64,000 nucleotides of DNA from an uncultured Acidobacteriota bacterium (GCA_963827655.1 CAWHCF010000045.1:56830-120829); one strand, 5' to 3'. Positions 40,436 to 57,199 are shown, counted from the first letter of the stretch. A program made the numbers and translations. Notes: generated by a model not told the origin, from the sequence alone.

Positions 40436-40678
40436 GCAGCGGGACGCTCGTCCTCTCACCCTGATGAACCGGTCTGAGTGACCGCCCGATCGCCGCCGTG
40501 GCGAAAGCCTGCAAAATTTCATCCCAGCCTAAAAGTTTTGGTCTATGATCGGCCAATCGGATGCCGCAGAACGGTCGGACCGGGCGCTCGAGTTGACATA
40601 ATGTCTGCCTTATCGGAAACTGGGCCGACCCCGCAACCGGGGGGCGCGAGGAAAACGGCTCTTGTTCGGCCTATCCGC
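40436..40678 (+). repeat. dif+oriIS-like unit, copy A; dif-like core 40591-40620
   Basis: AGTTGACATAA-TGTCTGCC-TTATCGGAAAC, then a GC hairpin and GAAAACGGCTCTTGTTCGGCCTATCCGC; nearly identical to 56962-57199. Confidence 0.9.
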
Positions 40679-40810
40679 TTCGTGGTTCGCTTGGTTGGCG
40701 TAGGTGGCCGACGTCTGGTTGAAAGGGATCAACTGCAGGAGAACTGTGGATCCAAAACGCAGTTTATTTCGACCATCCGCGCAACTATAATGAACAGCTA
40801 GCTACGGGAG

Positions 40811-41443
40811 GTGGAGATGGCAGCGCCGGCGTGGAACATAAGCGGCCAGTATTACGAAACCTGCAATTGCGACTTTGTTTGTCCGTGCCTGCCCGGAAAG
40901 ATGGCAGTTAGCCCGACGAAAGGGACTTGCACGTTTGTGATGGCATTTGAGATCGAGCGGGGGAGCTACGGCAGTCTGCCGCTTGACGGGTTAGGCTTCA
41001 TCGTCCTCGGTTTTACGCCTGGGGCGATGGCTAATGGCAACTGGTCAGTTGGGTTGATCGCCGATGAGCGCGCGAGCGTCCAGCAGCGCGACGCCATCAC
41101 TGCCATCGCGAGCGGCGCAGCAGGAGGGCCGATGGCAGCGCTGTCGGGGCTCGTGGGTCAGTTTCTGGGTGTGGCGTCTGCGCCGATTCGCTTCGATCGC
41201 ACCGGGGCCAGATGGTCGGTGGAAGCGCAGGGCCTGGTGGATATGGCTGCGGAAGGCGTGACCGGGCTGGATCCAAATGCAACAGAGCCTCTCCACCTCG
41301 ACAACACAGGCCATCCGGCTGCAGACCGCTTTGCTCTCGCCCGTGCGTTGAAGACCCACGTAAACGCGCTAGGGCTGAAGGTGGCCGAGGCCACAGGCAA
41401 GAACAACGGACAATATGCGCCGTTTTCCTGGCAGGGGTCGTAA
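40811..41443 (+). CDS. DUF1326 family protein
   Basis: YYETCNCDFVCPC; standard pairing with DUF2182. Confidence 0.88.
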   Translation: MEMAAPAWNISGQYYETCNCDFVCPCLPGKMAVSPTKGTCTFVMAFEIERGSYGSLPLDGLGFIVLGFTPGAMANGNWSVGLIADERASVQQRDAITAIASGAAGGPMAALSGLVGQFLGVASAPIRFDRTGARWSVEAQGLVDMAAEGVTGLDPNATEPLHLDNTGHPAADRFALARALKTHVNALGLKVAEATGKNNGQYAPFSWQGS

Positions 41444-42239
41444 CTTGCCAGCTTCACCGACCGCGACTGTCGCGGCTCTTCCCGTACCGGACCGCGTTCT
41501 CATCGCTGCGTGCATTGCTCTGATCACATTTCTCGCGTGGCTCTATCTGGTTCATCTCGATCGTCAAATGGCGATTGATCTGCGGCACGTGCAGATGATG
41601 GCAGAGCGTGGCATGACAATGGACATGCCGTGCATGAGCACCGATGTCTCTCTCACGTTCGCTATGTGGGTAGTCATGATGGTAGGCATGATGGCGCCTT
41701 CGGCGTCACCGATGCTTATGCTATTCGGTGCATCCAGGGCAGGCCGCGGCGAGCGCGGCGTGTCGATGGCAACGCTGGCGTTCGGGCTCGGATACGTGGC
41801 AGTTTGGGCCGGGTTCAGCTTGTGTGCGACTTTTGCTCAGTGGGCGTTGCACCAAGCCGCAATGCTGTCTTCGGCTGGAATGGCTTTGTCCAGCGGACAT
41901 CTGAGCGGCGGCGTTCTGATCGCCGCAGGCATCTATCAACTGACTGCCTGGAAAAGCAGATGTTTGACACATTGCCGGAGCCCGCTCGGATTCCTCATGA
42001 CGAATTGGCGCGATGGGACCAGCGGCGCGTTCGGCATGGGATTGCGCCACGGAATTTATTGTCTTGGATGTTGTTGGGCGTTGATGTGCGTGCTGTTCGC
42101 TGTGGGTGTGATGAATCTTGTATGGATAGCAATCTTAGCCGTCCTAGTTCTGGCTGAGAAGATCGGACCGGCCGGCGCCGCGTTGGCTCGCTTTGCAGGG
42201 GTTGCTTTGGTGCTGGTGGGTGTTTTGCGCTTGTTCTGA
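41415..42239 (+). CDS. DUF2182 metal-binding membrane protein (start uncertain)
   Basis: MWVVMMVGMMAPS, KSRCLTHCRSP, YCLGCCWALM. Confidence 0.9.
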   Translation: MRRFPGRGRNLPASPTATVAALPVPDRVLIAACIALITFLAWLYLVHLDRQMAIDLRHVQMMAERGMTMDMPCMSTDVSLTFAMWVVMMVGMMAPSASPMLMLFGASRAGRGERGVSMATLAFGLGYVAVWAGFSLCATFAQWALHQAAMLSSAGMALSSGHLSGGVLIAAGIYQLTAWKSRCLTHCRSPLGFLMTNWRDGTSGAFGMGLRHGIYCLGCCWALMCVLFAVGVMNLVWIAILAVLVLAEKIGPAGAALARFAGVALVLVGVLRLF

Positions 42240-42492
42240 GCTGACCGTGAAGTGAGCACATGACACGCATAGAGGTTGCCTACTTCTGGTAGGCTTTCGC
42301 CTTCCCGTCGGAGTTGCTGATGAGCATGGTCACGTGGCTGATCGTGGGCGTTGTCGTTGTCGTCCTGTATGTCTGGTAACATAAAGCCCCTTCTCAGAAC
42401 CTGAGACTCGAGCTGAAAATGACGCTTGTTTCCGCTTGTTTCTCTTATCCTCTTGCTAGAGGTGGAAGACAGAGTGGGTTAGCGCTTCAATC

Positions 42493-42658
42493 GGTGCTTC
42501 CGTCATCAAGTGTTGCTGGGATGGACTTAAAACTTTATGAGGCAGGATATTACAGACGAATTTGACTTCAGCAGTTCTAATCTGAGCTAAATCGGACATA
42601 AGTATCTTAGACACAATTAGATGGGACCGAGCCAGCAACAGTAGATTGCGGAAGCACC
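42493..42658. mobile_element. MITE (166 bp), same family as 28442-28606, followed by an extra terminal repeat (42659-42679)
   Basis: GGTGCTTCCGTCATCAAGTGTTGCTGG ... CCAGCAACAGTAGATTGCGGAAGCACC, then ACAATTGATGACGGAAGCACC. Confidence 0.72.
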
Positions 42659-42756
42659 ACAATTGATGACGGAAGCACCAGGATTGCGACAATTCGTCCT
42701 GGTCGCGTGGATGATGACGGCAAATTCGGAATTCGCCAGGGACAGGAAGTAAGCCG

Positions 42757-55214: not shown

Positions 55215-55230
55215 TCATATAATAGGGCGT

Positions 55231-56754
55231 ATGTCGCGAACCGTCTGGCTGGCACAGGGCACAGTGCTCTCGTTCTTCGCTGCTGCATTTACGGCTGCCG
55301 CTCAAACACCCTGTGAGGAACTCAGGTCGCTCCACCTTCCAGGGACAACGGTCACTCTCGCCGAAGCATTGACGGCGCGGCCTTTCCGGCCGCCCGGCGC
55401 CCAGCCCGGAATGAACGATATCGATATCCCGGCCCACTGCCGGGTAGCGGTTACGTTGAAGCCCTCGCCGGATTCCGACATCAAGGCCGAACTCTGGCTT
55501 CCCGCCGGCACAGCCTGGAATGGCAAGTTCCTCGGGGTGGGGGGCGGTGGTTTCGTAGGGTTTATCAACACCGGGGGTATGGCTTCCGCACTTCGGGAAG
55601 GCTACGCAACCGCTTCCACCGACACAGGGCACGAAGGATCGAGCGCCGCATTCGCGCTGGGACATCCGGAGAAGGTGATCGACTTCGCCTATCGCGCCGT
55701 TCACCAGATGACGGTTGCTTCCAAGGCGATCATCAACGCGCATTATGGCCGTGAGCCGCGCTTTTCCTATTTCCAGGGCTGCTCGACCGGCGGCCGCCAA
55801 GGGCTCATGGAAGCGCAACGTTATCCCGAAGACTACGACGGCATCATCGCCGGCGCGCCAGCGCACAGGCAGATTGACCTCTGCGCGTGGCGTATGGCGA
55901 TCATGAGGGCGGTCCTCATGGAGCCATCGAAAGCGCTTCCACCGGAGAAGACATCCATCGTCAACAAAGCTGTCCTCGAGCAATGCGACGCACTGGATGG
56001 GGTCAAGGACGGCCTGCTCACTGACCCGCGCAAGTGCCGGTTCAATCCGGCAACGCTCCTGTGCAAAGCCGCCGCACAAGACGGGTGTCTCACGGCTCCG
56101 CAAATCGAAACCGTGAAAATGGCCTATTCCGACGCGAGGAAAAGGAACGGCGACTTGATCTATCCCGGATTGGTTCCCGGGGGCGAAACCGGGTGGCTGC
56201 TGCCGGGCCGATCCACCGAACCTGGTGGCATCGACCTCGGCATGTTCCGCTACATCGCCCATCAGGATGCAGCTTGGGACTGGCGAAACTTCGACTTGGA
56301 GCGGGACACGGAGCTCGCGATGCGGAGCGCCGGATTCATGCATGCGGCGAACCCCGATCTGTCGGCCTTTAAGGCTCGCGGCGGCAAGCTGCTCCTCTAC
56401 CACGGTTGGAACGATGGCGGCTCGGGCGGCGCAATCTCGCCGCTGAGCACGATCAGCTACTACGAAAGCGTGCTGAAGAAAATGGGCCGGAATCAGGACG
56501 ACTGGCTGCGTCTGTTCATGGCCCCCGGCATGGCACACTGCGGCGGCGGGCCGGGCCCCAATCAGTTCAACGCGCTCGCGGCTCTCGAGCGGTGGCGAGA
56601 GGCGAACGTCGCGCCGGATATACTCCTCGCGGTTCGCGTTCTCAACAATCGGGTTGATATGACCCGCCCGCTCTGTCCGTATCCGCAGGTGGCGGTGTAT
56701 CGGGGTTCCGGCAGCAGCAACGACGCTGCTAACTTCGCCTGCAAGGCGCCGTGA
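55231..56754 (+). CDS. Tannase/feruloyl esterase family hydrolase
   Basis: STDTGH, GCSTGG, YHGWND, PGMAHCGGG, RPLCPYP. Confidence 0.93.
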   Translation: MSRTVWLAQGTVLSFFAAAFTAAAQTPCEELRSLHLPGTTVTLAEALTARPFRPPGAQPGMNDIDIPAHCRVAVTLKPSPDSDIKAELWLPAGTAWNGKFLGVGGGGFVGFINTGGMASALREGYATASTDTGHEGSSAAFALGHPEKVIDFAYRAVHQMTVASKAIINAHYGREPRFSYFQGCSTGGRQGLMEAQRYPEDYDGIIAGAPAHRQIDLCAWRMAIMRAVLMEPSKALPPEKTSIVNKAVLEQCDALDGVKDGLLTDPRKCRFNPATLLCKAAAQDGCLTAPQIETVKMAYSDARKRNGDLIYPGLVPGGETGWLLPGRSTEPGGIDLGMFRYIAHQDAAWDWRNFDLERDTELAMRSAGFMHAANPDLSAFKARGGKLLLYHGWNDGGSGGAISPLSTISYYESVLKKMGRNQDDWLRLFMAPGMAHCGGGPGPNQFNALAALERWREANVAPDILLAVRVLNNRVDMTRPLCPYPQVAVYRGSGSSNDAANFACKAP

Positions 56755-56757
56755 TAG

Positions 56758-56780
56758 CGGGAGCTGGCGACCGGCTCCCG
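56758..56780 (+). terminator. Hairpin just after the esterase stop codon
   Basis: CGGGAGCTGG-CGA-CCGGCTCCCG; no U-tract. Confidence 0.4.
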
Positions 56781-56961
56781 GATAGCGCTCGTGCAGTTCC
56801 TAGACCGACGGTCACACTCGCGCCCGGCCTTCGTCGCGCTGGGCCACAACGGATCTCGGGAGGTCAGTTGCAGCGCGGTATTCGTTGTGTGAGCCCAGGA
56901 ACCTACATGCTACGCGTAGGCTAAACCGGACAAGATTCGCTGGAAATTCCCCCACACTTCA

Positions 56962-57199
56962 GCAGCGGGACGCTCGTCCTCTCACCCTGATGAACCGGTC
57001 TGAGTGACCGCCCGATCGCCGCCGTGGCGAAAGCCTGCAAAATTTCATCCCAGCCTAAAAGTTTTGGTCTATGATCGGCCAATCGGATGCCGCAGAACGG
57101 TCGGACCGGGCGCTCGAGTTGACATAATGTCTTACCTTATCGGAAACTGGGCCGACCCCGCAGCCGGGGGGCGCGAGGAAAACGGCTCTTTTCGGCCTA
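56962..57199 (+). repeat. dif+oriIS-like unit, copy D; dif-like core 57117-57147 (9 bp spacer)
   Basis: About 240 bp near-identical to 40436-40673; right end slightly degenerate (CTCTTTTCGGCCTAGCGC). Confidence 0.9.

Follow-up and report, generated by a model that had tools for sequence, protein, structure and literature searches.

Four dif-like sites at IS91/ISCR-type ends

The DNA analysed here, which we call the window, is a stretch of 64,000 nucleotides from an uncultured Acidobacteriota bacterium; it corresponds to positions 56830-120829 of contig C45 in a genome of 8.18 Mb and 53 contigs (G000). It contains four sites that resemble dif, the chromosomal site of the XerC and XerD recombinases, each lying close to the end of an insertion sequence (IS). 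A search of the window for GTTTCCGATAA-N(6-10)-TTATGTCAACT returned four exact matches, all on the minus strand, against none in 100 dinucleotide-preserving shuffles. Site A (40591..40620) reads GTTTCCGATAA-GGCAGACA-TTATGTCAACT, with an 8-bp spacer. Site B (50253..50282) has the 8-bp spacer GGTAGACA, site C (55129..55158) has an 8-bp spacer identical to that of A, and site D (57117..57147) has a 9-bp spacer, GGTAAGACA. The preliminary description of this DNA, made from the sequence alone, had placed the sites at these coordinates, with N8 at A, B and C and N9 at D, and had given the plus-strand spacers as TGTCTGCC (A), TGTCTACC (B), TGTCTGCC (C) and TGTCTTACC (D); all of this was reproduced. 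The GGTCGG...CCGACC flanks that it had noted are likewise present at A, B and D, and at C the left repeat arm is changed, so that GGTCGG is absent.

The sites belong to a repeat of up to ~280 nt that occurs in at least nine copies in the genome, on contigs C2, C6, C27 (two copies), C40 and C45 (four copies). At C6 and at C27:38951 the repeat continues upstream into the C-terminus of an open frame matching the Pfam family Y2_Tnp. We refer to the element found in the window as type 1. Its sole long copy lies at C27:38878-41707, where the transposase gene is frameshifted and spread across three frames (PF04986, 78.9 bits); the positions of the fragments given below come from a blastn comparison of this copy with the genome. 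A relative on C52 encodes an intact protein of 516 amino acids with matches to Y2_Tnp (PF04986, 95.1 bits) and Zn_Tnp_IS91 (PF14319, 65 bits), about 40% identical to the transposases of the plasmid elements ISCR1 and ISVsa3 (ISCR2). The terminal motif of the repeat, ...GAAAACGGCTCTTGTTCGGCCTATCC, resembles the end sequence located after the genes annotated as ISCR1 and ISVsa3 and others related to them, ...GAAAAGGGCGTTTGAACTTCCTATAC. The oriIS-like end that had been proposed about 60 bp from the sites is a real ISCR-type oriIS end, located 54-57 nt after each of them (56 nt downstream of A, 57 nt of B and 54 nt of both C and D), and the site therefore lies inside the element. At D the terminal motif is changed to GGCCTAGC. 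The XerD-like arm of site A is directed toward the element interior and the XerC-like arm toward the oriIS end.

A Pfam profile search gave no match to a Y2_Tnp transposase on C45, the window's contig. What the window holds are decayed, transposase-less, 5'-truncated 3' (oriIS) ends of one IS91/ISCR-type element, all four of them in the same orientation. The solo end with site A (40436..40679, plus strand, ~244 nt) begins ~41-44 nt inside the 3' end of the transposase gene, beside the palindrome GGGACGCTCGTCC, and contains a 171-nt stretch that is 100% identical to copy D. In the end with site B (50183..50341, plus strand, ~159 nt), element positions 2441-2487 are joined to 2703-2816, with ~215 nt deleted internally. 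The end with site C (55114..55217, plus strand, ~104 nt) retains ~15 nt of the element upstream of the site, and the end with site D (56959..57199, plus strand) is ~241 nt long. Each of the four lies upstream of co-oriented genes, and these are mutually unrelated: DUF1326 and PpoB2, two sulfatases, a tannase family protein and an asparagine-synthase-like gene.

Three further type-1 fragments in the window, all on the plus strand, carry no dif-like site or come from within the transposase gene: a piece of its 3' end at 48017..48105 (element 2480-2566, without a site), the last 43 nt of an oriIS end at 53228..53269 (without a site), and an internal piece at 61863..61979 (element 2031-2147, 98% identity). 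Across the genome, type-1 fragments share a common 3' terminus and have a variable 5' cut, with 34 to 370 nt remaining, as is also the case for two other element types in the genome. The bases that follow the element end begin with GC in most copies.

Several solo ends (40436-40460, 56959-56985, those on C2 and C40, and copies of types 3 and 4, described below) begin almost alike, at most ~65 nt from the transposase stop, and the start shared by the type-1 ends adjoins the CTCG-containing palindrome GGGACGCTCGTCC. Compared with the terIS features given in passages of PMC13181058, this shared start may be an internal terIS-like stop that yields mini-elements of 240-280 nt.

Match to chromosomal dif and conservation of the site

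A genome scan for ATAA-N-TTAT cores identified a candidate host dif, ACTTCTGATAA-TGTATA-TTATGTAAACT, at C29:198152-198179. It is the only ATAA-N-TTAT site with the canonical 6-bp TGTATA centre. For genome-wide scoring we compared sites with the 22 arm positions of the family dif consensus, ACTTC(T/C)GATAA-N6-TTATGT(A/C/T)AACT, allowing spacers of 5-10 bp and using reversed arms as a control; on this scale the candidate is the only 22/22 site in the genome. With at most three mismatches, its 28-mer occurs exactly once each in 28 of 121 genomes of the same class, the window's own included, with no control hits, and once each in 27 of 50 genomes of the same family. A version without the spacer occurs once each in all five further genomes (5/5). 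The xerD gene (C29:203415-204617), which scores 372.3 bits as a XerD equivalog against a cut-off of 329.6, lies 5 kb from the candidate, and xerC (C26:160391-161569) scores 345 bits against a XerC cut-off of 335.15. The GC skew on C29, which flattens after ~195 kb and shows no clear inversion, is indecisive for this placement. The candidate is the probable chromosomal dif of the window's genome.

Locating dif, xerC and xerD and comparing the arms had been put forward as a check in the preliminary description, and the outcome agrees with its reading: the genome has a single-copy dif and both genes, and the arms of the window sites match that dif at 18/22. As in a Xer site, the two 11-bp arms have partial dyad symmetry and match the host XerC and XerD arms respectively. 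The match rises to 20/22, with the XerD arm at 11/11, for the dif sites of two relatives (G280 and G470), and the arms of the window sites likewise score 20/22 against the family consensus. The resemblance to Escherichia coli dif was also recovered as claimed, at 7/11 and 9/11, or 16/22 in total; taken alone this comparison is weak evidence, because an unrelated site in the genome (C10:147175) also scores 16/22 against the E. coli arms. The claim of invariant arms around a variable spacer was borne out for the four window copies; in other copies in the genome the arms are mutated too (C2:214661, C40:68861 and C27:36718). Arm invariance carries little weight, because identity between the copies is 74-100% across all 76 nt of the repeat family. 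A scan of metagenome contigs for the exact window arms gave eight hits, none of them a window-type copy; six of the eight have 6-bp AT-rich centres and resemble the chromosomal dif of other organisms.

Sites of this kind are enriched in the window's genome. Over its 8.2 Mb, 32 sites score at least 18/22 against one for the reversed-arm control (control maximum 18), and 14 score at least 19/22 against none. One of the 32 is dif itself; for at least 20 of the remaining 31, an ISCR-type end comes no more than ~60 nt later, in four element types. Counting copies of at least 18/22, with the sites written in the direction of dif, type 1 has eight, with the site G(T/C)TTCCGATAA-N8/9-TTATGTCAACT; type 2, the type of the C52 element, has two (GTTTCTGATAA-CGGGTT-TTACGTCATCT); type 3 has six (AGTTCGGAGAA-N6-8-TTATGTCAACT); and type 4 has four that are followed by an end (GGTTCTGAGAA-CGGGCT-TTATGTTAACT). 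A fifth type-4 copy, without an end (C8:4819), and the site at C26:121262 are found downstream of IS91-like transposase frames, at distances of 165 and 326 nt. A fifth kind, which we call type 6, has a 5-bp spacer. Two of these other kinds also occur in the window and bring its total to six dif-like sites. The type-3 site at 16759..16786 (minus strand; C45:73615, 18/22) reads AGTTCGGAGAA-TGGGGC-TTACGTCAACT, with a 6-bp spacer, and is followed by ...GAAAATGACTCTTTGTTCCGCCTGTCC. The type-6 site at 35165..35191 (plus strand; C45:91994, 18/22) reads GCTTCTGATGC-CGGTG-TTATGTCAGCT, and a degenerate end motif lies close to it.

Of 401 genomes sampled from the phylum, 47 contain homologues of the C52 transposase, counting the window's genome and an unpublished one (G049). 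A profile search of a species-level genome collection gave 80 homologous loci, from Acidobacteriota, Myxococcota, metagenome-assembled genomes labelled Spirochaetales, Gemmatimonadota and others; of the 80, we scanned the 60 in which 150 nt or more follow the transposase stop. The preliminary description had suggested scanning the regions downstream of IS91-family genes. With a threshold of 16/22, we found a site in 30 of the 60 regions and in none of the 60 reversed sequences used as a control (maximum 15). Spacers range from 5 to 9 bp and are mostly 6-7 bp. Most of the sites are oriented as in the window, with the XerD-like arm toward the transposase gene; in a sub-clade of four loci (L028, L116, L117 and L127) the orientation is inverted. 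Where an end motif was found, the distance from site to end is 26-29 nt in Myxococcota-type elements and 56-58 nt in Acidobacteria-type elements. An unbiased count of 8-mers placed TTATCGGA among the most enriched words, in 11 of 60 regions, whereas shuffles reached 9 at most. No dif-like site is present in the 235-400 nt after the gene in ISCR1, ISVsa3 or three further plasmid members of the IS91 family, where the best scores, 11-14/22, equal background. Taken together, these results show that the site is conserved in diverged elements, and they strongly support its reading as a dif-like part of the oriIS-proximal non-coding region in a large IS91/ISCR clade from Acidobacteriota, Myxococcota and other phyla.

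The most enriched word after the transposase gene (L057-L136) is a different one: a second conserved motif, AGCTTGAAATCGCC or similar, which echoes the terminal GCTTGAA. GCTTGAA may thus be repeated upstream of the site.

The arms also follow the host. We compared 27 element-host pairs from 22 hosts, having located dif as a single canonical site in 21 host genomes besides the window's. The mean match of an element site to the dif of its own host is 16.9/22, compared with 15.95 for the other hosts, and none of 5000 label permutations reached the observed value, although this test overstates independence, because the elements and the hosts come from related lineages. For the XerC arm alone the mean match to the own host is 8.78/11, again reached by 0 of 5000 permutations. 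It is the variable outer positions of the XerC arm that follow the host. Where the host dif has ACCAC(C/T)GATAA, the element has ACCAC(C/T)GATA-; where the host has ACGTCCGATAA, the element has A(C/G)GTCCGATAA, 11/11 in two cases; and where the host has ACTTCTGATAA, the element has --T(T/G)C-GATAA. In several hosts the XerC-like arm matches the own host at 10-11/11. The XerD-like arm is near-perfect in Acidobacteria types and systematically altered in Myxococcota types (for example, TTCTGACAACT). One pair, that of G486, fits its host poorly, at 13/22. These comparisons show that the XerC-like arm tracks the host dif; judged by the dif of the host, the sites are dif-like.

Explanations of the site and comparison with known systems

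The best explanation as a whole, to which we give a probability of roughly 0.55, is that a genuine XerC/XerD-type site is built into a clade of rolling-circle transposons. According to passages of PMC13181058, the last 82 bp of the right end of IS91 suffice for transposition, and IS91 forms single- and double-stranded circles, of which the transposase inserts the bottom-strand single-stranded circle only. In the mechanism that we propose, host XerC, with XerD, would bind the dif-like site of the element. Rolling-circle transposition would make double-stranded circles, which the transposase cannot insert in IS91, and Xer recombination would insert these circles, together with adjacent cargo, into the site of a resident copy. 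Alternatively, Xer may serve to resolve multimers at the site. The elements themselves presumably insert mainly through the Y2 transposase. The parts of the proposal differ in strength. Host XerC and XerD quite probably bind the site. That Xer recombination builds the arrays is a tentative suggestion, with the odds somewhat against it. The broadest version, in which an HUH-Y2 clade in Acidobacteriota, Myxococcota and other soil phyla has co-opted dimer resolution, with XerC and XerD splicing circles into resident sites to give integron-like arrays, strikes us as rather doubtful.

Xer-mediated integration would predict direct, type-specific arrays of the form 'site - oriIS end - cargo - element remnant - site'. 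The window's genome contains same-type, same-orientation arrays of 4, 3, 3, 2 and 2 sites, which match this prediction. In the window, sites B and D have pieces of the transposase gene upstream of them, and the cargo of D has such sequence downstream. Similar arrays occur in three other genomes: G492, G500 and G497, where one site of the C227 cluster is reversed. Sites of different types that share a region can have opposite orientations (examples are C27 and contig C6 of G492), which argues against a replichore-wide strand bias. The arrays are supportive and not decisive, because the same arrangement could also come from local rolling-circle events or from circles rescued through homologous recombination.

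One copy, at C27:36658-36752, has a right half (from the XerC-like arm to the end) that is identical to a neighbouring copy 2.2 kb away. It departs from that copy in the spacer and the XerD-like arm; further upstream it has unrelated sequence, which makes up the end of an open frame. We considered this copy, whose site is at C27:36718, as a possible Xer recombinant and set it aside: a crossover in the spacer could have produced it, and gene conversion or decay explain it equally well.

Several results weigh against a working recombination site or lend it no support. For the excision, shuffling or integration by Xer that the preliminary description had proposed, we obtained no evidence: no junction between two dif-like sites was found in assembled soil-metagenome contigs (Logan), which break at repeats and cannot show rare junctions, so that this absence counts for neither side; the sole contig joints that touch the element connect 48085/48091 to 56959/56960 and reproduce the intact element sequence. 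At all six chromosomal dif loci inspected (6/6), neither a transposase homologue nor a second dif-like site lies within 1.5 kb of dif, the other hits there being shifted overlaps of dif itself, and there is thus no sign of integration at dif. Known working Xer sites have spacers of 6-8 bp; the 8-bp spacers of A, B and C lie at the upper limit, as in cer, and the 9-bp spacer of site D falls outside that range. The spacers of 8-9 bp are a peculiarity of the window's lineage, and recombination among the four copies would be hindered by the differences between their spacers. Half of the homologous elements scanned (30/60) scored below 16/22. Solo ends that lack the site exist (the last 34 and 43 nt), and truncation is therefore independent of it. 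Finally, the four window copies may be inactive relics, given their awkward, unlike spacers and the lack of an intact cognate transposase.

Two observations stand beside these results. A single X3 metagenome contig agrees with the window up to 57129, a position in the spacer of site D, and differs from there on; it is possibly a diverged homologue, and we drew no conclusion from it. In G492, an Acidobacteriota metagenome-assembled genome, a multi-copy site of element type, CCGATAA-CGGGTG-ATATGTCAAC, is 4.5 kb away from dif and shares its orientation, near the end of contig C5 (C5:816280 and 820831), the only case we saw of an element site close to dif.

The alternative that survives best is that the site is the imperfect subterminal palindrome of oriIS, read by the HUH-Y2 transposase, probably as a single-strand hairpin. 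The likeness to dif would then be secondary, or XerC and XerD would act as architectural cofactors for nicking at oriIS with no strand exchange. Passages of PMC13181058 describe a pair of imperfect subterminal palindromes in the oriIS of IS91 and of IS801, with the last 82 bp sufficient for transposition; the sites studied here fall within the last 57-87 nt of the element. ISVsa3, as we read its sequence, has a palindrome GTCCAA...TTGGAC at a similar position, and within lineages the distance from site to end is fairly fixed, at 26-29 or 56-58 nt. The spacer moreover tends to pair with sequence just upstream of the XerD-like arm, with a mean best stem of 4.16 nt against 3.68 +/- 0.15 and 0 of 500 permutations reaching it, a modest signal that would fit such a hairpin. 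However, a hairpin needs no host dif arms, yet the XerC-like arm reaches 10-11/11 in several hosts and tracks host lineages. Folded as a single strand, the window end does not exceed shuffles in stability (z = +0.61), the inverted sites of the four-locus sub-clade are awkward for a strand-specific signal, and classical ISCR elements work without a dif-like sequence. We consider this account unlikely.

In seven loci (L059, L061, L062, L083, L084, L095 and L115) and in type 3, a stretch of 5-6 nt that lies at the XerD-like arm or immediately before it is complementary to the spacer. The complementary sequences differ between elements, and the arrangement resembles a compensated small hairpin with the arm core in its loop.

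Much less probable is a reading of TTGACA, in the XerD-like arm, as the -35 box of an outward promoter that drives downstream genes, like POUT of ISCR1. The position of all four window ends upstream of co-oriented genes (for example, DUF1326/PpoB2, the sulfatases and the tannase family protein) would suit such a promoter, GAAACT follows TTGACA after 17-18 nt, and outward promoters near oriIS are reported for ISCR1 (PMC6218425). A sigma-70 scan of 40400-40850, however, gave no promoter-like site. The putative -10 box is poor (3/6), the spacing between the two boxes varies from 15 to 18 across element types, and the second arm, the match to dif and the host tracking are left unexplained. We also rejected, as the main reading, a generic promoter or operator of a regulon, which the position of the sites before co-oriented genes had suggested: recurrences of TTGACATAA proved to be other dif-like sites in ISCR-type ends, and the promoter scan was empty. 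Chance resemblance to dif, with the four copies produced by recent duplication of a repeat, could appeal to the near identity of these paralogues and to the unrelated site that equals their E. coli dif score, but is effectively refuted by the scores of 18-21/22 to host-family dif against a single control site at 18 over 8.2 Mb, by the presence of sites in half of the homologous elements scanned (30/60) and in no control (0/60), and by host tracking that 0 of 5000 permutations reached.

A XerC/XerD site built into a rolling-circle transposon shares features with several known systems. With elements of the IS91 family and ISCR (ISCR1, ISVsa3, IS91, IS1294) the likeness extends to the HUH-Y2 transposase with its N-terminal zinc-binding domain, ~40% identical to those of ISCR1 and ISVsa3, to an oriIS terminal motif of the type GAAAA-GG-C-TTG-..-CCTAT-C, and to truncated oriIS ends lying directly upstream of unrelated genes. 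The difference is the site itself, which the elements studied here carry 26-58 nt before the end and which ISCR1, ISVsa3 and the three other plasmid members lack. The cer and psi sites are also non-chromosomal Xer sites, and cer has an 8-bp central region. Its action is confined to one molecule and requires an accessory region of ~180 bp for ArgR and PepA; nothing like that region was identified here.

In the pdif (xrs) modules of Acinetobacter plasmids, the sites have 6-bp spacers, alternate in orientation, lie on plasmids and are not known to be part of a transposon end. The four window sites are direct repeats, as are the sites of the other same-type arrays in the genome, and they lie inside IS91-type ends. 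The likeness to pdif is that several XerC/D-like sites bracket small gene modules, as described in bioRxiv 10.1101/2022.12.17.520857 and PMC5790767. Integrative mobile elements exploiting Xer (IMEX), such as the CTX, VGJ and TLC phages and the gonococcal genetic island, combine an HUH rolling-circle enzyme with a dif-like site for host XerCD. The central regions of phage dif-like sites are often longer than 6 bp and their XerD arms degenerate (Kono et al. 2011, PMC3025954), and the Myxococcota-type elements show this same pattern of a longer centre and a degenerate XerD arm. In contrast to the elements described here, IMEX integrate at chromosomal dif and do so without a transposase; our elements are scattered, with none within 1.5 kb of dif at the six loci, and the window sites are on C45 and dif is on C29.

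Two insertion sequences linked to tyrosine-recombinase sites are also comparable. A subgroup of the IS1202 family (the ISAba32 group) is physically linked to XerCD sites and is described as inserting 5 bp from a pre-existing Xer site, which is thus the target; the site studied here lies within the element, after the transposase gene and before the oriIS end, and moves with it. ISCR28 has a tyrosine-recombinase site, attC, at or just after its 3' end and forms 'sandwich' structures with two oriIS round a captured gene, and its authors, in passages of PMC12772301, read the ISCR as a passenger in a cassette. The attC site is for IntI, whereas the site in our elements is dif-like, for XerCD, and conserved within the element.

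The preliminary description knew of no report of this combination. Our full-text literature search, which mostly did not extend to subscription journals, likewise found no description of a dif-like site inside an IS91/ISCR oriIS end; with coverage so limited, this is not proof of absence. The analysis points to ISCR-type rolling-circle transposons with a built-in, host-matched Xer site, and its sequence comparisons suggest that this transposon group uses the host XerC and XerD recombinases. IS91 and ISCR elements are major vehicles of gene capture, and the proposal bears on how their circular products are rescued and on why cargo lies beside oriIS in ISCR-type arrays. If the proposal is true, rolling-circle transposition would be linked to the universal XerCD machinery, and the strategy of exploiting Xer would extend from phages and plasmid modules to transposons. 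The elements would form a gene-capture platform that joins two recombination systems and offers a site-specific route for cargo to a place next to oriIS. A constraint on host range would also be predicted, because the arms must match the host dif. The sequence signature is useful for finding such elements and arrays in soil genomes.

Neighbouring genes and metagenome contigs

Rfam, at gathering thresholds, gave no match in the window, and we accordingly rejected a riboswitch or other known RNA as an identity for the sites. In two stretches between sites A and B, ~42430-42750 and 47080-47740, the summed depth of soil-metagenome contigs is far above that of the surroundings, and some contigs join the type-1 oriIS end (at 50318 or 57196) directly to ~42433. 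These high-depth stretches probably represent additional repeats, or places of insertion in other populations.

A PhoD-like phosphatase gene at 42757-44578 (plus strand) is split into two overlapping frames, 42757-43791 and 43595-44578. Metagenome contigs have a 1-nt deletion at 43631, within this gene, relative to the window, and the split is probably a frameshift or an assembly error.

Between the 43-nt oriIS remnant and site C, and on the opposite strand, lie a sigma factor of the extracytoplasmic function (ECF) type (54440-55012, minus strand), then a weak zf-HC2/sensor match (53907-54443, minus strand) and a zinc-ribbon protein (53417-53950, minus strand). This trio resembles a sigma/anti-sigma module. 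Past the array, a large serine recombinase gene (62006-64000, minus strand; at least 657 amino acids, with Resolvase, Recombinase and Zn_ribbon_recom domains) runs off the end of the window and contig, and the whole region may be part of an integrated mobile element.

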